A stretch of 64,000 nt of DNA from Candidatus Baldrarchaeota archaeon (GCA_019056805.1 DXJG01000002.1:480515-544514), one strand, 5' to 3'; positions 1,624 to 64,000 are shown, numbered from the stretch's first letter. Translations and numbers: made by a program. Notes: generated by a model from the sequence alone, not told the origin.

Positions 1624-3759
1624 TTGCAGAGGTTGAAATCACAACGAATTCTAATAGTATCAGAGAAATATAAACAGGCTTTAGCCATTGCGAAAGCTCT
1701 TGGTAAGGTCAAGAGAGAAACACTTAACAATGTGCCAATTCTTTTTGTAAATGCTAACAATTCTAACATCGTTATTGTTCCTCTCCGCGGACATATTACA
1801 GAATATACAACTAAACCAGAATATGAAAAATGGTCGAAAACCGATCCAAAACTCATATTACTAGACAAGAATGCCTTAGAAAGGGTATATAAAGAAATAA
1901 AATACATTAAAGCCTTAAAAACGTTGGCAAAACAATGTGATGAACTAATATTTGCAACAGATGCTGACGAAGAGGGAGAAAATATCGCTTTAGAAGCGTG
2001 GGAAATTATTAGACAAGTAAATCCAAATCTTAAACCAAAACGACTCTGGCTACATACTCTAGTTCCAAGAGACATTCGAGAAGCTTTTAAAAACCTTATT
2101 GAGCCTAAATGGACTTGGGCATATGCAGTTGAAGCTAGAAGACAAATAGATGCTTTAATAGGCTTTGCCGCTACACGTGAACTTACACTAGCATTAAAAC
2201 CATTTCTGAAACAAATAGGAACTAACATTATCAGCGTTGGACGGGTCCAAACACCTACACTCTACCTTATATATGATAGAGAAAGAAAAATTAAAAATTT
2301 TATACCTGAACTTTACTGGAATCTATTAGCAGAAATAAATATCCATGGAGAAATTATTAAAGCAAAGCATGTGAAGTCTCCTTCAAAAGATAAAAACACG
2401 ATTTTTACCATTTATAATAAGATTAGAGGAGAAAAATTTGCAACACTAAAGGATATTAAGAGAAATGAAATCTATATCCAACCTCCAACACCATTTAACA
2501 CTACAGAAGCCCTAAAAACAATAACAAAAATACTTCCAATAACAGCTAAAACAGCCATGAGAATATTAGAAGACCTTTACTTAGACGCTTTAATAAGTTA
2601 TCCAAGAACCGACACTGACAAGTATTCTCCTTCTTTTCCTCATAGAGAAACTATTGCAAAATTTTTGAAAAGCAGAATATATCGTATGTATGCTGAAGAA
2701 ATTATGGAAAGAGGAGTTTTTAAACCTAGACAGGGCAGAGTGTTTAAAGGGGATCATGACCCTATCACCCCGATAGATGTAGCTGAACCTAATGATCGAA
2801 GATTTAGAACACAAAACCACTGGAAAGTATATGATATAGTTGTCAGAAGATATCTCGCGCTCTTCATGCCACCCGCAAAAGAACTTGGAATAAAACTGCT
2901 ATTTTTAATTAATGAAGAACAATTTAAAGCTGAAATAACCACTCTTCTTGAAGAAGGGTTCATGAAAGTTTGGCCATGGATGAAAAAAGAATACACCTTA
3001 ATACCGAAATTACCAAGACTTGGAGTTACACAAATTTATCCAATTAAAAAAATTTATACTGAAGAAAAAAAGACAAAACCGCCACCAAGACTTACCGAGA
3101 GTAATTTAATAGCTATGATGCAAAAATTTAACTTAGGAACAAAATCAACTAGACCACAACACATAGAAACCAATAAAAAACGAGGTTACATTATCAAAAA
3201 GGGAAGAAGTATATTTTGCTCCGACCTTGGATGGACTCTAGCTTCCAATTTAGAAAAAATTTGGCCAGAATTTGTTCTACCAAAATTCACCGCTAAGATT
3301 GAAGAAATGCTTCAAAAAATAATGGACGGATCAACCGATTGGATTAATGTTGTAGAAAATATAAGAAAAGAATTTTTAGACATGTTTGACAAGCTTAGAG
3401 AACGAAAACCAAAAATAGTTGGAGAAATCGAGAAAATCGTTGATAAAATGATGCAAGAAGGCATAACTTCTGAAACTTATGCTAAATGTTTAAAATGCGG
3501 AGGATCAATGATTTTAAGAAAGGGAAAAACTGGCAAACGATATATAAAATGCACCAATTGCGGTGAAACCCGCCCCTTACCTCAACGAGGATCTATTAGA
3601 ATACTTAAAACAAAAATTTGCCCAATATGTGGAAACAACGTTCTATCAATTTCTATTAGAAACTTTTCATATAAATTATGTCCAGTTTGTTGGATATCTA
3701 CGGGTATATGTGCAAAATGTACCTATAATGCTTGTAACATAAATAAAAAACAAAAATAA
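1624..3759 (+). CDS. DNA topoisomerase IA (Topo III/TopA type) with C-terminal C4 zinc ribbons
   Basis: TOPRIM motifs ILIVSEKYKQALAIAKALG and IFATDADEEGENIALE are present, together with the topo IA signatures GRVQTPTL and ISYPRTDTD. Three to four CxxC pairs lie in the last about 100 aa. At 711 aa with no helicase domain, this is not reverse gyrase. Confidence 0.85.
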   Translation: MQRLKSQRILIVSEKYKQALAIAKALGKVKRETLNNVPILFVNANNSNIVIVPLRGHITEYTTKPEYEKWSKTDPKLILLDKNALERVYKEIKYIKALKTLAKQCDELIFATDADEEGENIALEAWEIIRQVNPNLKPKRLWLHTLVPRDIREAFKNLIEPKWTWAYAVEARRQIDALIGFAATRELTLALKPFLKQIGTNIISVGRVQTPTLYLIYDRERKIKNFIPELYWNLLAEINIHGEIIKAKHVKSPSKDKNTIFTIYNKIRGEKFATLKDIKRNEIYIQPPTPFNTTEALKTITKILPITAKTAMRILEDLYLDALISYPRTDTDKYSPSFPHRETIAKFLKSRIYRMYAEEIMERGVFKPRQGRVFKGDHDPITPIDVAEPNDRRFRTQNHWKVYDIVVRRYLALFMPPAKELGIKLLFLINEEQFKAEITTLLEEGFMKVWPWMKKEYTLIPKLPRLGVTQIYPIKKIYTEEKKTKPPPRLTESNLIAMMQKFNLGTKSTRPQHIETNKKRGYIIKKGRSIFCSDLGWTLASNLEKIWPEFVLPKFTAKIEEMLQKIMDGSTDWINVVENIRKEFLDMFDKLRERKPKIVGEIEKIVDKMMQEGITSETYAKCLKCGGSMILRKGKTGKRYIKCTNCGETRPLPQRGSIRILKTKICPICGNNVLSISIRNFSYKLCPVCWISTGICAKCTYNACNINKKQK

Positions 3760-3777
3760 AAACAATTTAAGCCAAAT

Positions 3778-4410
3778 TCAAAGTTTTTCCATAACCTTTT
3801 TTACAAGTTCTCTCACAGCTTTTCTCCCGCCTAAAAACAAAGCTAATTCTGCAAGTCTTTCTACATGTCTTTCTAAGACAGGCATTATTATATCTTTTGA
3901 TTGAGTATCTAAGCTTGTTACGAGGTCTATTAATTCGCTTAAGGTATCAAAAACGCTTCTAAACATGTCATAAACATACATAGGAGCGTCTGAAACTCTT
4001 CTCTTCGCAATTAGATTCCCAACATTATAGTAAACTTCTTTAACAACAATTTCAGGAGAAGCACCATTTCCAAGTTTGTTGAGACCGTTCTTTAGGATTT
4101 CCTCTACGGTATTTTGCATTTGCCAAATCTGTTCATTGCTTTTACTTTTGCTCTCAAAAAATACCGCTAACGCATAGTGTTCAACTTCTTTTGTTTTTCC
4201 AAAGAAAATACATGCTATCATACCTAAATCTGGAAAAAGAGTTTGTACACAACCTTCAGCTTCGCTCAAATCTTTTGCACCACTGCTTACCCAAACATCC
4301 AAAGCCATATTCCAAAGTTTCTCTCGAGGGATAAATCCCTCGGGAAACATAGCCTCCGCTATAGGTCCCAGTTTATAATCAAACTTAATAAGAAGTACAC
4401 CTTTGAGCAT
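3778..4410 (-). CDS. longin-like domain protein (family member 1 of 3 in window)
   Basis: The N-terminus MLKGVLLIKFDYKLGPIAEAMFPEGF fits a profilin/longin-like alpha-beta pattern, followed by a helical C-terminal half. It lies 18 nt downstream of the KaiC-like gene on the same strand. It is a paralog of 6189-6839 and 8613-9089. Confidence 0.55.
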   Translation of the reverse strand: MLKGVLLIKFDYKLGPIAEAMFPEGFIPREKLWNMALDVWVSSGAKDLSEAEGCVQTLFPDLGMIACIFFGKTKEVEHYALAVFFESKSKSNEQIWQMQNTVEEILKNGLNKLGNGASPEIVVKEVYYNVGNLIAKRRVSDAPMYVYDMFRSVFDTLSELIDLVTSLDTQSKDIIMPVLERHVERLAELALFLGGRKAVRELVKKVMEKL

Positions 4411-4428
4411 TTATAAGCCACACACCAA

Positions 4429-5835
4429 TTATTCTATCGGAACGAGACGAGTTTCAATATAACCTTTCTCAGTGCTTACGGTCATAACATACATTTCGGT
4501 CCTAGGTATAAGTCCGTAAATTACAGTAGTTCCTTCAATATTTTCCAACTTAAAGTGGGTAGTAGCCATATGGCAAAGCGTTCTAATAAGTTTCTGACCA
4601 TATTTTACTATAGCTAGAACCAAAAGATTTCTAGTCCTTGAAAGTATAGACAACTGACTCAGAAACTTGTAAACAGTTTGAGGATCATATATATGTTCCA
4701 CCGTATCCACACCAATAATAAAAGCCAAGTCCCTGCTACCAACTTTTTCTCTTAATTCATTTACTGCTTTCGAAGCTATTTGATGTGCTTTAGCAACATC
4801 TCCTCTCGGTATTTTTAAAATATAGGGCTTTTCAGCTTCTGCTTCTTCAACCTCTAAAATCCTAACGCACGCATTAAATTTTTCTTCTCCAACAAAGGGA
4901 ATAATCCACTTTTCTAACTCTTCGACAGGTTCTCCTTCACATGGAATAATCATCACTGGTATATTATGTTGGACAAGATTTGCCACAAGAGGGGCTACAA
5001 GCCAAAGATAGTATGGTCCTACTTCTTCTCCGATTTCTAAGAGGTTAAAGCTTCCTCTTCTATAACCTCCAGCCGTTAAATTGTTTAAATCTTCCACTCC
5101 CGTTGAAATTCTCTCCTTACTCGTGATTAAAGGCGGACTGACAACTTTCTCAGGGAAGTAAATTGGTTCATCTCTGAAGTGCGTAAATCTTCCATCTTTT
5201 AAAGTAAAAAGAAATGTAGGTTTCTTAATTTCTTCCCCCCTTATTTTCTCAAATATAATTTTTCTAATAAGTCTCCCTTGGATAATTTCACGAGTTAAAG
5301 TTACGATCCCATCGACTAGATAATCTATAGTTAACGCTTCATATCTTTCTACAACAAATATCACATTAGAATTGGTAGATTCTCCCAATTCTAATAAAGC
5401 TCTTTCTATTCTTAAATTTTCTAATGGAATATCCAAATTAGTTTTTAATGCGTCTAAACTATCGATCACGATTGTAACTGGTCGCTTTTTTGAACTCTCA
5501 ATTTTAGCATATAAAGCTCTTAAGAAATCAGGCTCGTCTGAATATTCAAAAAGTATATATTCTGGAGCTGACACAGGAATCTGGGGTTTTCTAGCATCTA
5601 AAATGTTTTCTTCGGGAATACTATCTTTAATCCAAGGAAACTGCCTTAAAAGTTTCTTGCTTGACACACGTGTAGAAACATAATAGCTTGTTCCATTTAT
5701 TCCCATCTTCTTAATTAATTCCAAAGCTAAAGTTGTTTTTCCCGTACCAGCTAAGCCTTTTATTAATAGAGAAAAACCACCCTTGTTTAAAGCACTAATC
5801 AGTTCTTTTGGCACACCAAAAGAAACACTAACCAT
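4429..5835 (-). CDS. KaiC-like double RecA-fold ATPase (second domain degenerate)
   Basis: The N-terminal Walker A is GLAGTGKTT within MVSVSFGVPKELISALNKGGFSLLIKGLAGTGKTTLALEL, and a Walker B-like IVIDSLD follows. The second RecA-like half (…GGYRRGSFNLLEIGEEVG…) lacks an intact P-loop. Confidence 0.75.
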   Translation of the reverse strand: MVSVSFGVPKELISALNKGGFSLLIKGLAGTGKTTLALELIKKMGINGTSYYVSTRVSSKKLLRQFPWIKDSIPEENILDARKPQIPVSAPEYILFEYSDEPDFLRALYAKIESSKKRPVTIVIDSLDALKTNLDIPLENLRIERALLELGESTNSNVIFVVERYEALTIDYLVDGIVTLTREIIQGRLIRKIIFEKIRGEEIKKPTFLFTLKDGRFTHFRDEPIYFPEKVVSPPLITSKERISTGVEDLNNLTAGGYRRGSFNLLEIGEEVGPYYLWLVAPLVANLVQHNIPVMIIPCEGEPVEELEKWIIPFVGEEKFNACVRILEVEEAEAEKPYILKIPRGDVAKAHQIASKAVNELREKVGSRDLAFIIGVDTVEHIYDPQTVYKFLSQLSILSRTRNLLVLAIVKYGQKLIRTLCHMATTHFKLENIEGTTVIYGLIPRTEMYVMTVSTEKGYIETRLVPIE

Positions 5836-9089: not shown

Positions 9090-9223
9090 TTTTATTAAAT
9101 GATAAAGCGGTAAGTAAAGTATATTTTAGATTGCTAGTTTTGACAAAACGTTTTCATGTAGTAACATTTATTATTACCATTGTACTAATTTATAGATATA
9201 CTCTATTACAAATAATATGTGGG

Positions 9224-10042
9224 ATGCTAAAATTGCCGTTGCAAGACCTTATTGAAACACTGGAACGATTAGGATTCACAAAAAATGAAGCAAAAGTATA
9301 CTTAACATTAGTTATGACAAGAAATCCCCTCAATGCATCAGAAATTAGCAGGAGATCAGGCGTACCAAGAGCAAACGTCTACGAAACCTTAAATAAACTA
9401 GTGGGGAGAGGATTCGTTTTAAGAGAAGCTGCAGGAAGAGGAGCAAGATACGTAGCAGCATCACCCGACCAGATATTCGAAGCTCTCAGAGAAGAACATA
9501 AAAGATATATTCAACTGGTTGAAGAAGCAAGAAAAACATTTGACCAGCTTATGTCAAAAGTTACAAGACCGTTTCCAGGAGAAGCAGCATGGCTTGTAAG
9601 CGGAGAAACCAGAATCGACAACATTCTTAAAGATATTTTAGATACTGCCACACAAAGATTTACATCCTTAATGACACCCGATATAATTACAAGAAACGGA
9701 GAAGGAATCTTTTCAATGCTGAAGAGGAAGGCAGAGGATGGCGTTGAAATTCTCATTTCACTTAAAATTACAAGTGATATTCTTGATAAAGTTAAGGAAT
9801 TAGCAAATTCCGTGTCAGTTTTTCATTGGCAACTTGGAGAAATCCCCATGGGATGCTACGTTAGTGACGGTTCCCGTTGCTTAATGACCCTCGTCGGAAA
9901 ATGGGCTCCAATATTAACATACGACATAGGTATTTGGACCGAAAACCCGGTCTACGCAAAGTCCTTCGAATATTTAACTGAAAAACTTTTAACATTAAAT
10001 GTACCCTTTAAGAAATATCTTGAGGAGGAAGAAAAGGATTGA
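9224..10042 (+). CDS. TrmB-family winged-HTH transcriptional regulator (start at MLKLPLQDL; ORF track gives 9131)
   Basis: LGFTKNEAKVYLTLVMTRNPLNASEISRRSGVPRANVYETLNKLVGRGFV is a TrmB-type HTH. A TATA-like tttataga element sits about 30 bp upstream of 9224. The C-terminal block GCYVSDGSRCLMTLVGKWAPI is shared with the paralog at 28333. The stop overlaps the GTPase start (ATGA). Confidence 0.7.
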   Translation: MLKLPLQDLIETLERLGFTKNEAKVYLTLVMTRNPLNASEISRRSGVPRANVYETLNKLVGRGFVLREAAGRGARYVAASPDQIFEALREEHKRYIQLVEEARKTFDQLMSKVTRPFPGEAAWLVSGETRIDNILKDILDTATQRFTSLMTPDIITRNGEGIFSMLKRKAEDGVEILISLKITSDILDKVKELANSVSVFHWQLGEIPMGCYVSDGSRCLMTLVGKWAPILTYDIGIWTENPVYAKSFEYLTEKLLTLNVPFKKYLEEEEKD

Positions 10043-10554
10043 GTGGAGAGTACATCCTAAAAGTTGTTGTAGTAGGAGACTTAGCTGTAGGAAAAACAAG
10101 TTTAGTCATTAGATACGCAGAAAACAAGTTTCCAACAAGTTACAAACCGACAATAGGAGCAGACATAATGGTTAAAATGGTGGATCTCAAAGGAAAGAAA
10201 ATTAGACTTGCGATCTGGGATATAGCTGGACATGAAACTTTCCAGAAGATAAGGCGTTACTATTATCAAGGAGCTGCAGGCGCGCTAATACTTTATGATG
10301 TAACAAATCCAGAATCATTTGAACACGTAAAAGATTGGTACGATGATGTAGTCACTCATTGCGGAAAAATACCCATTGTCCTAATTGGAAATAAAATAGA
10401 TTTGAAAGATCAAAGAAAAATAACAACAGAACAAGGTGTGAAAAAAGCTGATGATATGGGTCTAGTAAAATTCATCGAAACAAGTGCAAAAACCGGTACA
10501 AATGTACACAACGCCTTTGTATCAATAATAGAAGAAGTGCTAAAAATATCATAA
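10039..10554 (+). CDS. Ras/Rab-like small GTPase (switch II Gln replaced by His)
   Basis: G1 is GDLAVGKTS, switch I is PTIGAD, G3 is WDIAGHE, G4 is GNKID and G5 is ETSAKTG. There is no C-terminal prenylation Cys. Confidence 0.8.
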   Translation: MSGEYILKVVVVGDLAVGKTSLVIRYAENKFPTSYKPTIGADIMVKMVDLKGKKIRLAIWDIAGHETFQKIRRYYYQGAAGALILYDVTNPESFEHVKDWYDDVVTHCGKIPIVLIGNKIDLKDQRKITTEQGVKKADDMGLVKFIETSAKTGTNVHNAFVSIIEEVLKIS

Positions 10555-29196: not shown

Positions 29197-29786
29197 TTAT
29201 CTTGTCTTTTTTATCTTCTGCAATCTCAACAATAGCTCTCTGGCTTGGGAGTTTTTTTCGAAGTATTCTCTTACAGGTTTCAAAAATTCTATTAGTGCCT
29301 CTGCCGCGGCATTTTTTAGATCCAATGGGTGAAGTTCACCCTTTAAATATATTTGTTCTAATTCGGGATAACTTTCAACAATTAAATCTCCACCATACTT
29401 TTCGGGTCTATGTATCTCTAATGTAAAATCATCTCGTGCAAATAATAAGTACTTATTTATTTCCATAATCGGATTAAATTCTATATCTTTTGGTGGACAA
29501 TAAGCTTGTTTAATCTTTTTCCTTATATCTTCCGGTGTATCATGAACAAATATACATGTTTCAGGCAGACTTTTACTCATTTTCGTATCTAAAAGAATTT
29601 CTTCTCTTGATTTTCCCGTAACATCCATCCTTCCTACCCCAGCCAAACCTGAGAGAAGAGGTGTATGAACAGCTACCGGCTTTCTTCTACCAAGTTTCGG
29701 TGCAATATCCCTACATAACATGTGGACACTTCTTTGATCCATTCCACCATAAGCTACATCCACATCAAGAAGAAAAACATCTGCTG
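29197..29786 (-). pseudogene. tyrosyl-tRNA synthetase paralog, C-terminal half only; in-frame TAA inside conserved motif, N-terminal half decayed
   Basis: The 188-aa GTG ORF starts GGMDQRSVHMLCRD...KMSKS...NPIMEINKY...RPEKYGGDL...ELHPLDLKNA, closely matching the archaeal TyrRS C-terminal half. The upstream frame continues ...KIFDVLSAR*AADVFLLDVDVAYGGMDQR, which corresponds to the YPxMQ-VDV-GGMDQR region. Further upstream all frames are closed. Confidence 0.5.
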
Positions 29787-30257: not shown

Positions 30258-31331
30258 ATGGATGTAGAAGAAAGATTAAATTTGATTAAACGACCACCAA
30301 CAGAAGAAATAATAACAGAAGAGGAGTTAAGAGAGCTTCTAGAAACCACTACCCATCCTAAGCATTACATAGGATTTGAAATTTCCGGTTTATTACACTT
30401 AGGAACTTTAATAATATGTGGTTATAAGATAAATGACTTAGCAGAAGCTGGTGTTGACGTTACAGTTTATCTTGCAGATTGGCATAGTTTTATCAATAAA
30501 AAGCTAGGTGGAAACTGGGAAAACATTCTAAAGGCTGCAAAGTATTATGAGAAAGCTTTTAAATTCTTTTGTCCCAAAGCAAAAATTGTTCTTGGATCAG
30601 AATTATATCATCATAACGATGAGTATTGGAAAGATGTTATAAGATTCTCTTCGCATATAACGTTGGCCAGGAATGTACGTTGCCTAACAATAATGGGAAG
30701 AAGTGAAAAGGAAAAATTAAATTTTGCGCAATATATTTACCCGCCCATGCAAGCTGTGGATATAAAATATCTGGGTGAAGATATACCACATGGTGGGATG
30801 GATCAAAGAAAGGTTCATGTTTTAGCAAGAGAAGTATTTCCAAAACTTGGTTGGAAAAAACCCGTAGCACTTCATCATCATTTGTTAATGGGTTTGGCAG
30901 GACCACCGAGAATAAAAACTAAGGATAAATTAGAGAAAGTAATTGCAATGAAAATGAGTAAAAGCAAACCATGGACATGTATATTTATTCATGACTCTGA
31001 AGAACAAATAAAGAAAAAACTATTAAAAGCATGGTGTCCCGAGAGGCAGGTTGAATTCAACCCTGTATTAGAATTGGTTAAATACATAATTTTTCACGAA
31101 AAAAAGGAGTTCTTAGTTGAGAGGGAAAGTAAACATGGCGGAGATATAGTTTTTTCTTCTTATGAAGAGTTGGAAAAAGAATACATTAAAGGGAATCTCC
31201 ATCCTTTAGATTTGAAACTATCTGTCGCGCGAGAAATCTCAAATATACTAGATCCCATCAGGAAGTATTTTGAAAGACCATCAAATAGGAAATTGTTAAA
31301 CGTTTTTAAAGAAGTTAAAATTATAAGATAG
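30258..31331 (+). CDS. tyrS: tyrosyl-tRNA synthetase (archaeal type), HIGH motif reads HLGT
   Basis: IGFEISGLLHLGTL, YPPMQAVDIKYLGEDIPHGGMDQRKVH and KMSKSKP are present, plus the anticodon-binding C-terminus. Confidence 0.8.
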   Translation: MDVEERLNLIKRPPTEEIITEEELRELLETTTHPKHYIGFEISGLLHLGTLIICGYKINDLAEAGVDVTVYLADWHSFINKKLGGNWENILKAAKYYEKAFKFFCPKAKIVLGSELYHHNDEYWKDVIRFSSHITLARNVRCLTIMGRSEKEKLNFAQYIYPPMQAVDIKYLGEDIPHGGMDQRKVHVLAREVFPKLGWKKPVALHHHLLMGLAGPPRIKTKDKLEKVIAMKMSKSKPWTCIFIHDSEEQIKKKLLKAWCPERQVEFNPVLELVKYIIFHEKKEFLVERESKHGGDIVFSSYEELEKEYIKGNLHPLDLKLSVAREISNILDPIRKYFERPSNRKLLNVFKEVKIIR

Positions 31332-32679
31332 AAACTATATTTTTGATGGTTTTTCCAAAGTCTGTTAATTCCCAACATTCTTGATTATTTTTTCCGCTAA
31401 CTCGTCTAACAATACCGCTTTTTTCCATCGATTTTAGAAGTCGCATAATAAAATAGCCGTTTCTTCTTATGGAATTTTGAAGCTCGAGCGTTGTAAACTT
31501 AGAATTCATAATGTTAAGGTAGCTTAGTACTCTATATTTTCGATGAGATTTTAAAGCATATGCGAGTATATTGAATTGTTTGGAATCCTTAGGAAAGATT
31601 TGCATAATTTCAATTAAGCTGCGCCAGTTCAAGTACGAGGTCAAGATGAAAAGGTTTCTTGCTTTAGATTTTTTAATTTTACCTTTAATGTTCACATGAC
31701 TCAGTATTTTTTCATAATCTTTTATGTACTGTTCATTGCTTTCAAAAATTTGTAATCTCACATTTAAAGAATTGTTTTTGTCTCTATAACAATATACATT
31801 ACCATCTCCAAGTAACAGTCCTTGTAAAAAGAATTTTAGTATGTCCTTATCAGGATTAGATTTTGTTAAATATCTTCTAATTTCATTCATTGCATTATAG
31901 CAAAATTCCGCCAGTAAGGAATTTGTTACCCAAAGTTTAATTGTAAATTCTTTTACTCTTTCTATTTTTCTTGTGAAAATATTTTTGTTTGGAATTCCAA
32001 GTTTGATCAAAAATGACTTTACTTTTTTGACTTGATTAAACTTTGGATTTATTGAGATAGTCGCATTGAATAACGATATATCAATAAAAGTTTTAGATAG
32101 TTGAAGAAAGTCAGAAATGATTGTCAACGACTTATTAGTAAAGCTAAATTCCCTTCCCCTGCGCCGCTTTAGAATGGTTTTTCCCCCTTCCGCTTGTAGA
32201 TAACCCAACAATTTTGCAAAACTCTTCGAAACGTATCTGTTAAACACTATTTCTTTAGGTCTACCTTTAGCTGGATACCACAAAAATATATTATTTTTAT
32301 AACACCTACAACATATAGGAAAACCTGACATAGTTTTTTGGATTAAAAAGTAAAGTAGATCTATAGAATTCCCATTTAACATTTTAGTTGGTTTCTGTGC
32401 AGCTTCCACTTTTTTAATATGCATAGTGATGATTTGACCTTTTTTTAGTTGGAGAGCTTCTCTACACTTTTTGGGAATAATGATTCTCCTTCCCTTGGTG
32501 AAATAAGTAACAAAAAATTTAGTTCCAATATTCGTAGTTATTCCTATCTCCAAAAATCCATTGTTTATCTTATTTTGTATTTGAGCTGGTACCCAAATAC
32601 GATTACCTTTGTATACTAGTTTCAATTTCATACATATTTGTGGTTTTGAATTAATAAAAAGTCCACCATTTTGTATCAA
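31321..32679 (-). CDS. free-standing two-motif LAGLIDADG-family protein with N-terminal AbrB/SpoVT-like repeats and C-terminal winged helix
   Basis: Motif 1 is FAKLLGYLQAEGGK and motif 2 is FLQGLLLGDGNVY, about 105 aa apart. The N-terminus has NRIWVPAQIQ and GRRIIIPKKCREAL (swapped-hairpin-like). The C-terminus has a wHTH (NSIRRNGYFIMRLLKSMEKSGIVRRV). Confidence 0.6.
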   Translation of the reverse strand: MIQNGGLFINSKPQICMKLKLVYKGNRIWVPAQIQNKINNGFLEIGITTNIGTKFFVTYFTKGRRIIIPKKCREALQLKKGQIITMHIKKVEAAQKPTKMLNGNSIDLLYFLIQKTMSGFPICCRCYKNNIFLWYPAKGRPKEIVFNRYVSKSFAKLLGYLQAEGGKTILKRRRGREFSFTNKSLTIISDFLQLSKTFIDISLFNATISINPKFNQVKKVKSFLIKLGIPNKNIFTRKIERVKEFTIKLWVTNSLLAEFCYNAMNEIRRYLTKSNPDKDILKFFLQGLLLGDGNVYCYRDKNNSLNVRLQIFESNEQYIKDYEKILSHVNIKGKIKKSKARNLFILTSYLNWRSLIEIMQIFPKDSKQFNILAYALKSHRKYRVLSYLNIMNSKFTTLELQNSIRRNGYFIMRLLKSMEKSGIVRRVSGKNNQECWELTDFGKTIKNIVSIL

Positions 32680-39246: not shown

Positions 39247-39825
39247 TTACACTGACTGATATTTCCTGATTGCGTATATTAATAATTGTGCTAATTCCTG
39301 AAATGCTGGCTGTACATTTTCACCGGTTTTGGCGGAAGTCTCTATAAAAACTATCGGAACGTCAAATTTTTCCTCTAAATATCTTTTTAGTATTTGTCCT
39401 TCCTCGTTGCTGACCCAGTCACGGCTTGGATCTGGTGGTGTATCTATCTTAGGTCTAAGATCTATTTTATTTCCAACTAAAACTACTGGTACTTTTCCAG
39501 TATTTTTCACTAACTCTTCCATCCAAAAGACTGTATTCTTAAAGGTACTTCTTCTCATTACATCATAAACAAGTAATGCTCCACTTGTGCCTCTATAAAA
39601 GGATTCTCTTACTGCTTTGAAGTGTGGTTGTCCAGCTAAGTCCCATATTTGAAACTTAACCTGAACCTCATCAGATAACTTGATATCCATCACTGCAAAG
39701 TCAGCACCAATAGTCATTATATATGCACTGTCGAAACCTTCGCCCATAAATTTTCGTCTAAGTGCCGTTTTTCCGACACCACCATCGCCAATTAAGACAA
39801 CTTTGAAAAGATAACTGTTTTTCAT
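39247..39825 (-). CDS. Ras/Rab-like small GTPase (tandem copy A)
   Basis: GDGGVGKTA, TIGADF, WDLAGQPHF, GNKIDL and ETSAKTG motifs. GGAGG precedes the ATG. Confidence 0.8.
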   Translation of the reverse strand: MKNSYLFKVVLIGDGGVGKTALRRKFMGEGFDSAYIMTIGADFAVMDIKLSDEVQVKFQIWDLAGQPHFKAVRESFYRGTSGALLVYDVMRRSTFKNTVFWMEELVKNTGKVPVVLVGNKIDLRPKIDTPPDPSRDWVSNEEGQILKRYLEEKFDVPIVFIETSAKTGENVQPAFQELAQLLIYAIRKYQSV

Positions 39826-40010: not shown

Positions 40011-40568
40011 TCATTCTTTAGACATATTTAAAATCAAATCAGCAAGTGTTATGAACGCAGTATTCACATTTTCCCCAGTTTTTGCAGAAGTTTCTATAAA
40101 ATGCACCTTAACTCCAAACTTTTCCTCTATAATCTGTTTTTTCTTAAGGCCTTCCTCAGTAGTAATATGGTTTCCACCTGGAACACGCAAATCTATCTTA
40201 TTACCAACCAAAACTATAGGCACTTTCGTTCCTGCATTCTCAAGAAGTTCAGTTACCCAAAGCTCAACATGATCATAAGTTTCCCTTCTAGTCACATCAT
40301 ATACCAGAAGAGCACCTCGCGATCCTCTGTAGAATCCCTCTCTTACTGCTTTGAAGTGTGGTTGTCCAGCTAAGTCCCATATTTGAAACTTAACCTGAGT
40401 CCCGTCAGATGTCTCAACATTTTTTACAGCAAAGTCAGCACCAATAGTAACTAAATATGATGCTGTAAAACCTTCGCCCATAAAACGTCGTCTCAAGGTT
40501 GTTTTTCCGACACCGCCATCGCCAATTAACACAATCTTAAAGAGATAGACCATCGCACTCAACCTCAA
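40011..40568 (-). CDS. Ras/Rab-like small GTPase (tandem copy B; start possibly MVYLFKIV at 40553)
   Basis: The same G1-G5 set as copy A. It shares a roughly 60-nt identical block with copy A. Confidence 0.8.
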   Translation of the reverse strand: MRLSAMVYLFKIVLIGDGGVGKTTLRRRFMGEGFTASYLVTIGADFAVKNVETSDGTQVKFQIWDLAGQPHFKAVREGFYRGSRGALLVYDVTRRETYDHVELWVTELLENAGTKVPIVLVGNKIDLRVPGGNHITTEEGLKKKQIIEEKFGVKVHFIETSAKTGENVNTAFITLADLILNMSKE

Positions 40569-43309: not shown

Positions 43310-44623
43310 TCAAATTTTTCCAGTTTTGGCAACAGTTATACTTGTTATTGCTTTTTCAATAGCCTTAGTCATTCTCTCTGGTGATAAAGTTGTTTTAAAC
43401 AATCCAGTTTTAAAACCATAGTATCTTCCTCGAGTAACTTGCGCTATCCATATTAAGAGGTGTGTGGGAGATATTATGAGTTTTGCATCCCACTTATCAA
43501 TATGAACCGGATTAACAACTATAACTGGGATATTTTTCCTTGCCAAAATTTGAGTTGCAGCTATTACATCAGCCTGCGCTGGTGCTGGAATTTTTTCTCT
43601 CAATGATATGTTTAACGGCTGCTTTAATGGTACATTTGCCAAACCATCACTAACTAATACAACTATTGGAATCGTATCAGGATTTCTTCTTAACTCCTGC
43701 GTTAATACCTGTGTAGCTTTTAACAATCCATCAGCTAGAGGTGTACTACCCCCAGCCCTTAACTTGATAATTTTCCTTGCAACTATGTTAATATTCGTAG
43801 TTGGATGAAACACAATTCTAGCTCGTTCCCCTTGTAGAACAATTAAACCTACTTTATCTCTATAACGATAGGCCTTCCTATGCAAAGAAAAAACAGCTTC
43901 AGCAATTGTTTGAAGATGATATACCATACTTTCACTTAAATCCAAAACCAGTAGTATCGTAATTGGAGTCTTATACATCCTAACATTTGTTCTTAAATCC
44001 TGAAGTTCGACCTGGATAGCTAGTTGTTCTGCTAACCGCATTTGACGTAGCGCCGCAACTCTTATCGTTGGTCCAAAAGCTATATCAATTGTAGGGCTCT
44101 TAGGAATCTCATATCCTACAATTCGACCCTTATGAACAGATGTTACCGCCAAAGCCCTTTTACCAGAAAGATACCTCCTCTTCCTAGCTTTAACTTTTAC
44201 ATCAAAACCAAATTCAAACCTTTCTTTATGTGACTTAAGTTCTTTAAGCACAGTTTTACCGGGAGCAAAAGGCACTTTCCTAGAGACATCTATTGCTGAA
44301 AAATCCATCGGAGCGATTTCTACCATAACTTTTGCTTCGTCCCTTTCTTTCTCTTGCCTCCCTCTCAGTATATAATCTTTGGATATTGTCCGTTTCCAAA
44401 GAGCCTTTAACTTTCTAGTAACCCTATTGAAACGACTTGCCTTCGTTTCCTTAAAAATGGAAAGATAAGTTCCTCTCCTAAAAATTTTCGGCAATTTTTC
44501 TTTTTCTACAGCCATCAAAGGAACCAGTGAAAAAATTCTTTGAAATGTAGGCTGCTTATCCGTTGAAATTCCTCGTCTACCTTCTACCTCAACAGTTGGA
44601 ACTACTTTCTCCCTACCTTTCAC
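43310..44623 (-). CDS. VWA-domain protein (ChlD/BchD C-terminal-like)
   Basis: The MIDAS motif is LVLDLSESM ... GGSTPLADGL. The N-terminal half is basic. It lies immediately downstream of the ChlI-like gene. Confidence 0.65.
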   Translation of the reverse strand: MKGREKVVPTVEVEGRRGISTDKQPTFQRIFSLVPLMAVEKEKLPKIFRRGTYLSIFKETKASRFNRVTRKLKALWKRTISKDYILRGRQEKERDEAKVMVEIAPMDFSAIDVSRKVPFAPGKTVLKELKSHKERFEFGFDVKVKARKRRYLSGKRALAVTSVHKGRIVGYEIPKSPTIDIAFGPTIRVAALRQMRLAEQLAIQVELQDLRTNVRMYKTPITILLVLDLSESMVYHLQTIAEAVFSLHRKAYRYRDKVGLIVLQGERARIVFHPTTNINIVARKIIKLRAGGSTPLADGLLKATQVLTQELRRNPDTIPIVVLVSDGLANVPLKQPLNISLREKIPAPAQADVIAATQILARKNIPVIVVNPVHIDKWDAKLIISPTHLLIWIAQVTRGRYYGFKTGLFKTTLSPERMTKAIEKAITSITVAKTGKI

Positions 44624-44651
44624 CTTAGCATCAGCTTTTCTTAAAACATAC

Positions 44652-45731
44652 TTACCTTCTCGCTGAACGAAAAAAGCCTTTCATCGACCCCATTATTTTT
44701 TTGAAAACACTATCTATCTCTTCGGGAGTTGCCGGCTCTTCAAACCCTCCCCGTCTAGTTCTGTGACCCAAAGCAAGCTTTGCTGCAATATTAATATCCT
44801 CTGGCTCAACCATAGTTCTGCCCTGAAAAGCCGCAAGAGCCCTTGCCGCTTGAACTATAATTATATCAGGTCTATGCCCGTCAACTTGAAGGATTAAACA
44901 TAATTTCGCTACAGCCCTTAGAATAGGGTCAGGTACTTGTACACTTGGAAAGATTTCAATGGCTTTCATTATTCTTTCCCTAAGCTCCCTTTGCTGATCT
45001 TCATATCTATTTCTAAACCCTATCGGATCTTCTGAAAACTCCAAATTTCTCTTAATAACCTCAACTCTCAAATCTTCGTCTTGAATTCCTCGAATCGTAA
45101 CTGATAAAGGCAAACGATCCAAAAGTTGTGGTCTTAATTCCCCTTCCTCCGGGTTCATGGTTCCCACAAGTATAAAACGAGAAGGATGGGCAATGGATAT
45201 ACCCTCTCGTTCAACAATATTCCATCCTGAAGCAGCTGCATCTAAAATATCATCCACAATATGATCAGGTAATAAATTAATTTCATCAACATACAAAATA
45301 TTTTGATTAGCCTCTGCAAGAATTCCAGGCTGTAAAGCTCTTACACCTTCTTTTAAAGCTTTTTCTATGTCCAACGACCCTATAACTCTATCCTCTGTAG
45401 CTCCAATAGGCAGTGTAACAACACGCATTTTTCTTCTTTCAACAGGTAGTTTCTCTCCTCTTTCAAATTTCTCTCTACAGACATCACACATATTTGTAGG
45501 ATCTTCCGGATTACAATTGAAAGGACAGTCCTTTACAACTTTTATTTCAGGTAATAAATCTGCCAAAGCTCTTACCACAGTACTTTTACCCGATCCTTTT
45601 TCTCCCCTTACTAATAAACCTCCTATCTTGGGATTTATCGCATTTAAAATTAAAGCTAATTTCAAGAGATCTTGATCAACTATAGCTGTAAACGGGAAAA
45701 CGATTCTTTCTTCTGATAAACTTCTTGACAT
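44652..45731 (-). CDS. ChlI/BchI-type AAA+ chelatase subunit with 4-Cys insertion
   Basis: [10 protein letters not shown]..., GEKGSGKST and ...[21 protein letters not shown]...YVDEINLL...[38 protein letters not shown] are colinear with Mg-chelatase ChlI. The insert is [17 protein letters not shown]. The start is set at [14 protein letters not shown]. Confidence 0.8.
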
Positions 45732-45841
45732 TTTAGACAGTAACCCCCAAATTATAGAAATGAAAAAGGAAATATAAAATATTCGAAATCGGAAATAAGC
45801 AATCAAGACTTTCAACAATTTACGTGCAATAAATCTAAGAA

Positions 45842-51822: not shown

Positions 51823-52500
51823 TTAACGGAATAGCTTTATAGTTTTCTTATCATGAACTATGTTGTCTATTGCCACTACGAAACCTAAAAGTAGTAATCT
51901 GTCTACATCGTCTTTGAAAACATGAACCGCATATTTATCGCTAAAGTCAAATACTCCACCTATAAACATGTCTCGAAGAGCATCTCCTTTACTAACTTCC
52001 GCCACTAACTTATTTTTTGCATCAAAGATTTTAAAGTTCCACCCGAACAAATTACCTTTTGCAGTTAAAAGCTTTTTACCCTTTTCATCTTGAAGCCAGA
52101 GAGATGGACGGAAAAAACTTAAAATCTTTTTTGCAACTCTACCTACAAGCCTATCGTTTGCATCTTTAATATCGTAAGTTGGACGTACCGCAACAATTTT
52201 CCTATGAACAGCACCAACTATCGTTTCATTATCTGCTTCCCTAAGCTCCACCAAAGCTCTCAAAGAAATTAATCTCCGGTGCATACGGCCGATGATATCT
52301 CCCTTTTCATCATAAATATCTCCGTAACCTAGATCCCAATACCTTTCTTTAATGAAATAATATTTCCTTGAAGGATCTAAAAGACCGCTTCGACCCGAAG
52401 ATGGTATTGTTGCTTCAGTAGTTAGTTGTTGACCGCATTTTGTACAAAATTTCGCATCTGGGCTATCTATTTTCTCTCCACAATGCGGACAGGAATCCAC
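51823..52500 (-). CDS. N-terminal zinc ribbon + LURP-one-related/tubby-C-like (DUF567) protein
   Basis: MDSCPHCGEKIDSPDAKFCTKCGQ is followed by a 12-strand-like F.I.D..G pattern (YYFIKERYWDLGYGDIYDEKGDIIGRM..., NFKIFDAKNKLVAEVSK). Confidence 0.45.
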   Translation of the reverse strand: MDSCPHCGEKIDSPDAKFCTKCGQQLTTEATIPSSGRSGLLDPSRKYYFIKERYWDLGYGDIYDEKGDIIGRMHRRLISLRALVELREADNETIVGAVHRKIVAVRPTYDIKDANDRLVGRVAKKILSFFRPSLWLQDEKGKKLLTAKGNLFGWNFKIFDAKNKLVAEVSKGDALRDMFIGGVFDFSDKYAVHVFKDDVDRLLLLGFVVAIDNIVHDKKTIKLFR

Positions 52501-60486: not shown

Positions 60487-61470
60487 GTGGAAATTAAAGA
60501 ACTGGTATATGAAGGAGTAAAACTAGTTTTTGATCCACCTAAATTAAAAACATCAATCGAAGAATTGTTGCTTCAAGTAGGGGGCATTCTTAGCGAAGCA
60601 GTGGTAGTTCTTAAGGGAGGAGATGGAGAAGCATACTACCCAAGTGTGGTTTCATTTCAAAGTGAAAAACTAAGAGAATTGGGACTAAAAATGGTAAATC
60701 TGCTAAAAGATGTAGATATAGAGGTGAAAGGACTCATATATGTTCATTATGATGAATATCTAGCGGAAGAATGTGGGACAGTTGAAACAAGTGGCAAAAA
60801 GCCTGAAGGATTTATATGTCCTCTAAATGAAATGTACGAAGAACAATTCCTAAAAATACTTGAAGAAATATCACAAATAAACATTGAAAACCTAATTTTT
60901 GCATTAACTGGGTATGCAAGCGGTTCGTATTGTTTCTGTGAAAAATGCAAAGCAACATTCGCCATGGATAGAAGGATGCCCAAAGACTTTAATCTCACTA
61001 CTTTACAAGGAGAAAAAGAACTATATAATGAGTGGATAGAATGGAGGAGTAACAACATTGAAATATTTCTCTCAAAAGCAGTTGAAAAAGCAAAAGAACT
61101 AAACATAAATCCCGTCTTTGCTATTGAATTTGATCCTATACTTCGCTTCGAAGAAGGTCTAAAGGAATCTTTGGGTATAGATGTAAAAAAGGTTGCGAAT
61201 CTTTTCAACCATTTTATAATTATGGTAAATCCATGGGAAGTACTATTACCAAGGATGGGAAGCAAAGGTTTCAATGAATTAGTTCAAAGAATCAAAAAAT
61301 TAAGACGTGAAGTGAACAAAAAACTTTCACTCATGTACTGGCCACCCAACGAAGAAGAACTAAAAACACTTGTACAGTTAAAAGAAGAAACAAACAGCGA
61401 GAATTTATATGTTTTCCTTCAATACCCAGAACAATTCAAAAATTGGAGAGAAATAAGAACTATAACATAA
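60487..61470 (+). CDS. hypothetical protein
   Basis: A 327-aa ORF with a GTG start and a Cys cluster CFCEKCK. No family was recognised. Confidence 0.45.
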   Translation: MEIKELVYEGVKLVFDPPKLKTSIEELLLQVGGILSEAVVVLKGGDGEAYYPSVVSFQSEKLRELGLKMVNLLKDVDIEVKGLIYVHYDEYLAEECGTVETSGKKPEGFICPLNEMYEEQFLKILEEISQINIENLIFALTGYASGSYCFCEKCKATFAMDRRMPKDFNLTTLQGEKELYNEWIEWRSNNIEIFLSKAVEKAKELNINPVFAIEFDPILRFEEGLKESLGIDVKKVANLFNHFIIMVNPWEVLLPRMGSKGFNELVQRIKKLRREVNKKLSLMYWPPNEEELKTLVQLKEETNSENLYVFLQYPEQFKNWREIRTIT

Positions 61471-61492: not shown

Positions 61493-61666
61493 TTATTCCT
61501 CTATTATTTCATATTCTCTATCATATATTTCTTCTTCATATCCACATATGGGGCATTCGAAGAAGGGCATAACATCAATAATAGCATTTGTATCAGGGTT
61601 AACGCGTACTCTAATGTATATACGTAACTCTACAGTTTCACCACAACCGGGGCATACGATTTGCAC
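61493..61666 (-). CDS. small CPxCG zinc-ribbon protein (57 aa)
   Basis: (M)QIVCPGCGETVELRIYIRVRVNPDTNAIIDVMPFFECPICGYEEEIYDREYEIIEE. A GTG start. Below the ORF-track cutoff. Confidence 0.3.
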   Translation of the reverse strand: MQIVCPGCGETVELRIYIRVRVNPDTNAIIDVMPFFECPICGYEEEIYDREYEIIEE

Positions 61667-62080
61667 AGCAACACCCCCATATTAACTGTGAAACTTTCAC
61701 ATTAAAACTCTTAATTAAAATTTTCTGGTGGTAATTCGGAGTTACAAAGAATAGATGATTCCAATAAGAACCGTCAAAATACTCGATTACAAACAATAAG
61801 TGTTATTTATTGTTTAAATAAATTTTAAAAGCCTCAGAGGCCATTTCACCTTTCAAAAGGTTAAACTTTGAATGATAAGTTTACATAAAATAAATACTTT
61901 ATCTAGATTAGAGCGAAAATACTCCTTTTCTCTTCATAGCTAATACGGTCTTCACCTTTTCAAGTACTTATGATATTAAGTTTAAGTGTGTTATATCATA
62001 GGTCACAGATATTTATAGTAGAGAATTATGATCGCAACTTTAAAATAGATAATGATATGCAAAGATTTCAGTGATTAACC

Positions 62081-62404
62081 ATGTCAATTGAGAACATCGC
62101 AAAACAACTAGAAGCTGAAGTAGATAACCTAGTAATAATGGACGAATCAGGTAATATACTAACAAGTAAAGGATCTCTTACTCTCGATCCCGATATAATA
62201 TCAACGATCGAAAATAAAGAACCTTCAGTAACACTTCAGGGAACAAAATATATCACCCTAACCGTGGAAGAAGACAGATATATAGCTTTAAACATACCAC
62301 AACAAGAATACTTCGCAGGAATTAAAGTAGAAGACAAATGGATTTTCTTCACCACAAAGGAGGATCCCAAAAACATAATAAACAAAATATGGAAATCCAT
62401 CTAA
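62081..62404 (+). CDS. profilin-like small protein (profilin/roadblock fold)
   Basis: LVIMDESGNILTSKG, DPDIISTIENK and VTLQGTKYITLTVEEDRYI parallel profilin's AAIVGHDGSVWAQS, KPEEITGIM and LGGTKYMVIQGEPGAVI blocks. There is a C-terminal helix. Confidence 0.4.
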   Translation: MSIENIAKQLEAEVDNLVIMDESGNILTSKGSLTLDPDIISTIENKEPSVTLQGTKYITLTVEEDRYIALNIPQQEYFAGIKVEDKWIFFTTKEDPKNIINKIWKSI

Positions 62405-62645
62405 CCCTCTTTTTCTATTAACTAAACAAAATAGCCCGACAAAACTTTAGATTGTACGAACCCCTAATTAACCTTCTTTTCACAGAAACAAAAATCCCTT
62501 AGTTGTATTTTGTAAAAAGAAAGATATATAAAATATAAAAGCAACAAAAATAAAACCAAAAATCAAATTAGCAAAATAATAATCAGATTCTTTTAGTGCA
62601 GTATCAAATCGGTCTGGAAGCTGATTGGTGGAGGGGATTATTTAC

Positions 62646-63374
62646 ATGTTGAATGAGAAGGTTAGAACTGGAATTAATGGTCTTGACGAGTTGCTCGGAG
62701 GTGGAATACCAAAGGGATCAACAGTTCTTATTACAGGGGAAGCAGGAACAGGGAAAACAACTCTAGCAGTGCAATATATAGTAAATGGAATAAAAATGTT
62801 CAATGAAAAAGGTCTCATAGTAGTAGCTGGAGAAGATGTCGAAACATTACAAAAATTTATGCTACAATTTGGATGGGATTTAAGACAATTTGAAAAGGAA
62901 GGAAAACTCGTATTGATAGATTTGACAAGCGTAAAAATTGGGATACCAGCGGATGTGAGATTCACAGAGTTTCAGCTTACAACAACCGACATAAAACAAC
63001 TGATATCGACAATATATAGGGCAGTAAAGCAAAATAATATAAAAAGAGTAGTAATAGACTCTGTACCCAATTTAGTTACGGAAACAAGTAGTGTAGAAGA
63101 TTTAAGAACTGCATTATTAATGCTATGTACCCTACTGGGAAGAATTGGCTGTACAACGTTGATAACAACGGAGATACCTGAGGGAGCAGAAAAATTAAGC
63201 ACATATGGAATGGAGGAATTCGTAGCATCAGGAATAATAAAATTGATGTTTAAAAAAGAAGGAAATAGATGGATAAGAAAAATACAAGTAAGAAAAATGA
63301 GAGGAACAAAACACAAATTAGAGGAACATGTATTTGAAATAGGAAAAGAAGGAATAAAAATATCAAACAAGTAA
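62646..63374 (+). CDS. single-domain KaiC/RadB-like RecA-fold ATPase
   Basis: GINGLDELLGGGIPKGSTVLITGEAGTGKTTLAVQY is the Walker A, and VVIDSV is Walker B. Confidence 0.7.
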   Translation: MLNEKVRTGINGLDELLGGGIPKGSTVLITGEAGTGKTTLAVQYIVNGIKMFNEKGLIVVAGEDVETLQKFMLQFGWDLRQFEKEGKLVLIDLTSVKIGIPADVRFTEFQLTTTDIKQLISTIYRAVKQNNIKRVVIDSVPNLVTETSSVEDLRTALLMLCTLLGRIGCTTLITTEIPEGAEKLSTYGMEEFVASGIIKLMFKKEGNRWIRKIQVRKMRGTKHKLEEHVFEIGKEGIKISNK

Positions 63375-63573: not shown

Positions 63574-64000
63574 TTGGGAATATTTGACGAGTTATATTTT
63601 TGGCTTGAAAGTCTCATATCTATCAATCCTTGGATATCTGCTACATTAATAGGATTTTTCAGTTCATTTGGAGTCTTCTTTTCCTTCGCACCCTCAATTG
63701 TACTATTCATAATTCTTTTTGCGCAGGGATACAACCCCTTATTCATTTCCATATGTGCAGGATTTGGATCTATGATGGGAGAATTGGCAAGCTACTACCT
63801 AGGCTACGTTGGTAAAAAAACCATAGATATTGCTTCAAACAAATTTTCCACAGACATAGAACTTTCACCGAAAATGAAAGACTTCTTCGCATGGCTAGAT
63901 AAAGTACTTTACACCATGGGAGAAGAAACGGTCTTCATATTTTCATTAACTCCTCTACCAGATGATCTACTTCTCATCTATTTAGGAGCCAAAAAATACC
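63574..64000 (+). CDS. DedA/VTT-domain-like membrane protein, 3' end beyond window
   Basis: An open TTG-initiated frame not in the ORF track (no stop). It reads LGIFDELYFWLESLISINPWISATLIGFF...GFGSMMGELASYYLGYVGKK...FSLTPLPDDLLLIYLGAKKY. Confidence 0.4.
   Translation, partial: MGIFDELYFWLESLISINPWISATLIGFFSSFGVFFSFAPSIVLFIILFAQGYNPLFISICAGFGSMMGELASYYLGYVGKKTIDIASNKFSTDIELSPKMKDFFAWLDKVLYTMGEETVFIFSLTPLPDDLLLIYLGAKKY

Follow-up and report, generated by a model that had tools for sequence, protein, structure and literature searches.

A protein of 107 residues encoded by a Candidatus Baldrarchaeota archaeon is very probably a genuine, vertically inherited, single-gene Asgard profilin that is predicted to bind monomeric actin. 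The Baldrarchaeota are a phylum of the Asgard archaea (Promethearchaeati), and for the Baldrarchaeia hyperthermophilic growth is predicted, the median of the predicted optima being 88 °C (Eme et al. 2023, PMC10307638). The window, as the whole analysed stretch of 64,000 nucleotides is called here, is AT-rich (G+C = 35%), and a scan of the genome collection returned one homologous locus, in Candidatus Baldrarchaeota archaeon isolate Yap30.bin4.67. The profilin gene lies close to the 3' end of the window, followed on the same strand by a gene for a KaiC-family ATPase (Table 1).

Table 1. Features of the window, counted from its first nucleotide; the predicted structural elements are given as residues of the 107-aa protein (H, helix; E, strand).
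Feature	Position	Strand	Details
Ras-family small GTPase	10039-10554	+	PF00071, E 8.5e-60
Ras-family small GTPase	39247-39825	-	PF00071, E 1e-44; tandem with 40011-40568
Ras-family small GTPase	40011-40568	-	PF00071, E 7e-48; tandem with 39247-39825
327-aa protein, no family	60487..61470	+	Upstream of profilin; syntenic in all Baldrarchaeial loci
57-aa zinc-ribbon protein	61493..61666	-	Two CxxC pairs; weak zinc-ribbon Pfam matches; conserved in L001, L002 and L004
Promoter-like block GATCGCAACtTTAAAATAGA	62030..62049	+	Near-invariant in four loci with diverged upstream DNA
TATA-box-like TTAAAATA	62040-62047	+	Within the 20-nt block, 33 nt upstream of the ATG
TTTCAGTGATT	62066..62076	+	11 nt next to the ATG; invariant in the four-locus alignment
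Profilin gene	62081-62404	+	ATG start, 107 aa, TAA stop
Predicted elements of the 107-aa protein	H3-10, E16-21, E26-30, H39-44, E49-52, E55-62, E66-71, E76-83, E86-92, H96-106		
T-rich tract CCCTCTTTTTCTATT	62405..62420	+	Directly past the profilin stop; T5 at 62410-62414
KaiC-family ATPase gene	62625-63374	+	249 aa from TTG; 242 aa from ATG 62646
Walker A GEAGTGKT	62736-62759	+	In the KaiC-family gene
Walker B VVIDS	63048-63062	+	In the KaiC-family gene
VTT/DedA-domain membrane protein gene, 5' part	63574..64000	+	Continues past the window end

Gene boundaries and family membership

Both open reading frames singled out by the original prediction, that of the 107-aa protein and that of the downstream ATPase, lie exactly where it had placed them. 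An in-frame TGA at 62072-62074 rules out a longer start for the 107-aa ORF and thereby fixes its N-terminus. The exact protein is found in public assemblies, including one 612-kb NCBI contig, and a word-indexed homolog search gathered five clusters of 78-93% identity and matched no others; every homolog is 107 aa long, the homologs stem from MAGs of Candidatus Baldrarchaeota/Baldrarchaeia, and the public names of the cluster members read only 'hypothetical protein' (Candidatus Baldrarchaeota or Baldrarchaeia archaeon). All homologs end on the same residue and the DNA 3' of the stop codon has diverged and carries indels, and the short length of the protein is therefore genuine. On the same grounds, stop-codon read-through and a recoded, longer C-terminus were considered and rejected. 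Pairwise comparison of the window gene with four homologous loci gave dN/dS values of 0.08-0.10 (~0.09) at a dS of up to 1.2, which demonstrates strong purifying selection on the 107-aa protein.

The gene would be expressed as a single-gene unit from a promoter of its own. The element embedded in the near-invariant upstream block is a putative TATA box, judged by the archaeal promoter consensus, while the short invariant sequence beside the start codon resembles the Shine-Dalgarno sequence GGTGAT or may constitute a short leader. A T-rich tract follows the profilin stop codon in four of the four loci and is likely to be an archaeal oligo-T terminator, which would render the profilin gene monocistronic.

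The protein almost certainly belongs to the profilin family, a relationship that standard domain annotation overlooks. Pfam and NCBIfam returned nothing meaningful for it, neither Robl_LC7 nor Profilin (PF00235, gathering threshold 25 bits), to which the window protein has no match even at E <= 10. This reflects a bias of the Pfam model towards eukaryotes, given that the solved Asgard profilins share the sequence family of the window protein. The scans also produced weak matches to MutS_V and AMPK-gamma (CBS), which were short, below threshold and confined to the N-terminal alpha-beta-beta unit, and were dismissed.

Profile and sequence searches, by contrast with Pfam, revealed a similarity far beyond chance. 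As a single query (phmmer), the window protein matched the Odinarchaeota profilin (5ZZA chain P) at E = 2.1e-7 over residues 1-84, followed by the Thorarchaeota profilin 7PBH at E = 0.08. A profile built from six clade members, Baldrarchaeial sequences only, had the Odin (5.4e-9), Thor (0.0076) and Loki-2 (0.35) profilins as its top three PDB matches. When the clade profile was run exhaustively with HMMER against 1.8 billion representative proteins, the only additional small relatives were two proteins 119 and 123 aa long (E = 2.9e-7 and 9e-6), both with weak PF00235 scores under the threshold (14.9 and 18.3 bits); three long repetitive proteins from the same scan were treated as spurious. A profile seeded with the two relatives retrieved 24 proteins, among them 'hypothetical proteins' of Asgardarchaeia and Promethearchaeota, several of which carry PF00235. 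When the 16 members from outside the Baldrarchaeia were made into a profile of their own, it matched all five solved Asgard profilins (1e-45 to 1e-10), and hhalign aligned the Baldr-only profile to these 16 other Asgard profilins over 99 columns with 98.7% probability (E = 3.7e-16). Of the 19 family members in the alignment, 16 touch PF00235 at E <= 1 and one touches Robl_LC7, weakly.

Conservation was scored on this 19-sequence family alignment, in which three positions (L10, G54 and Y57) never vary and two more (G24 and K56) reach at least 90% conservation. The three blocks from which the original prediction had read a resemblance to profilin all line up with the family: LVIMDESGNILTSKG corresponds to the beta1-beta2 hairpin and contains G24, LQGTKYITL aligns with the family strand QG[IV]KYS[TV][IL], and the third is the C-terminal helix. 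The most conserved block of the family is the strand KEPSVTLQGTKYITL. K56 of the window protein aligns with K58 of the Odin profilin, a residue cited as a predicted site of PIP2 interaction (PMC8410842).

Predicted structure and related folds

Two template-free AlphaFold models were built, one from the six clade sequences only (pLDDT 77.7) and one from the 19 family sequences (pLDDT 87.2, pTM 0.79). Both have the topology H-E-E-H-E-E-E-E-E-H, and the predicted structure is that of a profilin, with a seven-stranded antiparallel sheet between the N- and C-terminal helices. Foldseek searches of the PDB placed the Odin profilin first in either case, with a TM of 0.84, an rmsd of 2.2 Å and 25% identity for the 19-sequence model, and a TM of 0.78 and an rmsd of 3.0 Å for the six-sequence model. 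It was followed by the profilins of Loki, of yeast and Acanthamoeba, of Heimdall and Thor, and by plant and mite allergen profilins; with the 19-sequence model, profilins from these sources occupy ranks 1-21 throughout. This model is not independent of the homology call, because its alignment contained other profilins; the six-sequence model, derived from Baldrarchaeial sequences only, gives the same Foldseek ranking.

The fold that most needed to be told apart from profilin is that of the Roadblock/LC7 (PF03259) and LAMTOR/MglB-type proteins, which are of similar small size and share the ancient N-terminal alpha-beta-beta unit. Ras-like GTPases are abundant in the genome, Roadblock/LAMTOR chains are present in the Foldseek list, and 30 columns of the alpha-beta-beta unit align between the family profile and human DYNLRB1. 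The two folds nevertheless separate clearly in the same comparisons. In hhalign the family profile was assigned a probability of 5.8% with DYNLRB1 and of 42% with yeast profilin, the latter end to end over 107 columns and with QGTKY of the profile falling on QGQKF of yeast. Roadblock/LAMTOR chains first appear at rank 28 for the six-sequence model and at rank 22 for the 19-sequence model, where the structure in question has a TM of 0.43 and an rmsd of 8.9 Å; overall these chains reach TM values of 0.43-0.51 at 7-10 Å and rank under 21 profilins. The roadblock core is five-stranded and dimeric, a poor fit to the seven strands and C-terminal helix of the model, the window protein finds no Robl_LC7 match in Pfam, and over 20 kb separate the profilin gene from its nearest GTPase gene. 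That the protein is a Roadblock/LC7/longin-type regulator of small GTPases rather than a profilin is thus extremely improbable. The original prediction had called for this structural comparison and had named a top match to Roadblock/LC7 with no profilin similarity as the outcome that would speak against it; profilins came out on top and roadblock well below in both Foldseek and hhalign, and since the best matches are solved Asgard profilins the adverse outcome did not arise.

Among the known profilins, that of Odinarchaeota is the closest counterpart of the window protein by sequence and by structure alike; it was reportedly crystallised with rabbit actin by Akıl and Robinson in 2018. Both proteins are compact and have neither the Loki loop nor an N-terminal extension, both keep the QG[VT]KY strand including the Lys equivalent to K58, and the eukaryote-type aromatic polyproline platform is absent from both. 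The window protein differs in being 12-14 residues shorter: about 3 residues are missing between alpha1 and beta1, 3-5 from the beta6-beta7 hairpin and ~7 from the end of the C-terminal helix (~11 relative to yeast profilin). In addition, Leu33 takes the place of the Trp in the N-W motif that follows beta2 in the family. Loki profilin-1/-2 and the Thor and Heimdall profilins (5YED/5YEE, 5ZZB, 7PBH, 6YRR) have the same fold (TM 0.65-0.80) and belong to the same family by profile search, but they are 130-148 aa long and carry a Loki loop or a disordered N-terminal extension that the window protein does not have. The eukaryotic profilins (PF00235; yeast 1YPR, Acanthamoeba 1ACF) likewise share the fold (TM 0.71-0.74, rmsd 2.4-2.6 Å), whereas identity drops to 15-17%, there is no Pfam match, and their polyproline-binding aromatics of the W3/Y6/W31/H133/Y139 type are missing from the window protein together with the far half of the C-terminal helix. 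At 107 aa the Baldrarchaeial proteins are shorter than all others in the set (119-133 aa for the remaining retrieved members, 119-148 residues for the solved Asgard profilins), and this short form is restricted to their lineage. The suggestion of the original prediction that the protein is a short profilin variant is borne out by its best matches in sequence and structure, which are solved Asgard profilins.

Gene neighbourhood

The ATPase encoded next to the profilin had been described as KaiC/RadB-like, and the first half of this label stands. It is a single-domain KaiC-family protein with one RecA-like domain, 242-249 aa in length, that matches PF06745 at E = 3.9e-70 (236 bits against a cut-off of 26.6 bits, profile positions 1-228 of 231); ATG 62646, the codon used by public gene calls, is its likely start. 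The RadB half does not hold beyond the superfamily level and the shared P-loop, the match to the RadB equivalog TIGR02237 amounting to 27.5 bits against a cut-off of 172.4 bits and covering only residues 20-60, the P-loop region. The protein also stays under all cut-offs of the NCBIfam KaiC-type models. A second KaiC-superfamily protein, of 468 aa and GvpD-like (GvpD_P-loop E = 4e-13, KaiC E = 1e-10, GvpD basic region 2), is encoded at 4429-5835 on the minus strand.

The local gene order comprises the 327-aa protein, the 57-aa zinc ribbon on the minus strand, the profilin, the KaiC-family ATPase and the VTT/DedA membrane protein, and the same order recurs in near-identical metagenomic copies of the window as well as in L002 and L004, two other Baldrarchaeial lineages. 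The 327-aa protein has no Pfam match and is present as 66-83% identical copies in L001, L002 and L004; the translated window tail of the VTT/DedA gene matches the same three loci, and a full 241-aa PF09335 gene occupies the equivalent position in loci L010-L012. L001 is the nearest distinct relative, with a 93% identical profilin. It has no KaiC gene in 15 kb, the VTT-domain gene coming directly. Between its zinc-ribbon and profilin genes L001 carries two extra minus-strand genes (3627-4656; DUF2085, 173 aa, and an unknown protein of 83 aa), and the window has a 414-bp non-coding gap at this position (61667-62080). The comparison of L001 with the window suggests that genes have recently been gained and lost in the vicinity of the profilin.

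This arrangement bears on the idea that the profilin and its KaiC-like neighbour work together as a two-gene module, for instance an ATPase-regulated cytoskeletal switch, which is very improbable. The two genes share a strand, are spaced by only 220 bp and stay together in the window and in the lineages L002 and L004, yet the KaiC-positive loci are all close relatives and the shared synteny therefore reflects shared ancestry. The pair is broken in L001, and in other Asgard lineages the genes next to the profilin are unrelated ones, such as those for S8 peptidase, DUF763 and radical SAM proteins. Tested by synteny, the functional link was rejected on these two grounds. The T-tract past the profilin stop codon and an A/T-rich, promoter-like stretch before the KaiC-family gene argue in the same direction, and the latter gene is considered a separate transcription unit and a mere neighbour of the profilin gene. 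The adjacency to which the original prediction drew attention is real, and no functional significance could be detected in it.

Further eukaryotic signature proteins of Asgard type, which the original prediction had seen elsewhere in the genome, are indeed encoded within the window in the form of three Ras-family GTPases; the gene of the one on the plus strand shares 4 nt with the stop-codon end of a gene for a TrmB-type HTH protein (9131-10042). A full-length tyrosyl-tRNA synthetase gene (TyrRS, 357 aa; 30258-31331, plus strand) adjoins a divergent 188-aa ORF (29197-29763, minus strand) that corresponds to the C-terminal half of TyrRS only (residues 166-357), is 48% identical to the full copy and matches PDB 2cya at E = 9e-63. 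No N-terminal TyrRS half is encoded upstream of this ORF, which is either a stand-alone truncated TyrRS paralog or a gene remnant. A 452-aa ORF beside the TyrRS genes (31321-32679, minus strand) matched LAGLIDADG_3 only weakly (E = 9.6e-6) and nothing among the PDB sequences; it is possibly a gene of the homing-endonuclease type that stands alone. A MoxR-like AAA+ ATPase (AAA_lid_2, AAA_5) is encoded directly upstream of a VWA-domain protein at 43310-45818 on the minus strand, a classic MoxR-VWA pair, and a 225-aa protein encoded at 51823-52500 (minus strand) combines a zinc ribbon at its N-terminus with a LURP-one-related/scramblase-like (tubby-like) domain. The tRNA and Rfam scans found no tRNA genes and no Rfam families above gathering threshold in the 64-kb window.

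Actin, polyproline and the reach of a trimmed profilin

[quoted passage not shown] The predicted contact surface combines the beta4-beta6 face around the QGTKY strand with the opening turns of the C-terminal helix; once bound, the protein would act as a buffer for actin monomers and hold back their spontaneous nucleation. These two effects have been demonstrated in vitro for the Loki, Odin, Heimdall and Thor profilins, and actin binding has probably been retained in the Baldrarchaeial form.

The expectation for polyproline is different. Polyproline is bound by the Heimdall and Thor profilins and not by those of Loki or Odin, and its binding site in the eukaryotic, Heimdall and Thor proteins is made of aromatics on the two terminal helices and a Trp after beta2 (PMC8410842). 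This aromatic platform, which is not a defining feature of Asgard profilins, is missing from the window protein: residues 1-56 contain no W, Y, F or H, Leu33 stands where the Trp would be and the terminal helix is short. Given this absence, the window protein is predicted not to bind polyproline ligands, in the manner of the Loki and Odin profilins.

The trimming could also be taken to mean that the Baldrarchaeial form has kept the fold and ancestry of a profilin but has lost actin binding and serves another partner, be it a lipid or a cytoskeletal or regulatory protein. The window protein is at least 12 residues shorter than every other retrieved member, with the far half of its C-terminal helix gone, it shares only 20-34% identity with the characterised profilins, and its net charge is acidic (18 D+E against 11 K+R); the acidic charge and the shortened C-terminal helix could change or weaken the binding of partners or lipids. 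However, the best-conserved stretch, both in the clade and in the family, consists of the central QGxKY strand, its flanks and the start of the C-terminal helix, and in profilin-actin complexes this strand and the start of this helix form the actin-contact face. The segment that is absent here is the part that touches polyproline, and not actin, in eukaryotic profilins, and the trimmed part appears to be mainly the polyproline side of the C-terminal helix and not its actin side. A search of all plausible window ORFs of 100 aa or longer and of the adjoining 10 kb turned up no actin gene, but profilin and actin genes are likewise unlinked in other Asgard loci. A loss of actin binding is on balance unlikely, and a profilin that engages monomeric actin remains the preferred reading of the gene.

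The window protein adds a new and compact member, so far without annotation, to the known Asgard profilin family and is the shortest profilin retrieved. Few eukaryotic signature proteins (ESPs) have had their function proven biochemically; the Asgard profilins have, and the case for regulated actin dynamics being older than eukaryotes is anchored in them. The 107-aa gene extends the record of individual profilins to the Baldrarchaeia and illustrates the degree of trimming that the fold tolerates. At the census level a profilin in Baldrarchaeia is already known, while the individual gene is unannotated, and the overall picture is unchanged, since earlier large-scale work had assigned profilin-domain and actin genes to the inferred ancestor of the Baldrarchaeia (~1.4 'Profilin domain' and ~1.3 actin genes; Eme et al. 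2023, PMC10307638, supplement). ESP censuses that rely on Pfam thresholds will undercount profilins, and the window protein is a case in point. With 107 aa, the Baldrarchaeial clade may hold the smallest natural profilin so far and, if it still binds actin despite lacking the distal half of the C-terminal helix and any polyproline platform, a minimal and possibly ancestral actin-binding core, a proposition for which we consider the case to be evenly balanced. If it is true, this profilin, from a lineage with a predicted optimum of ~88 °C, would lend itself, as a scaffold of very high thermostability, to structural studies of how Asgard actin is regulated.
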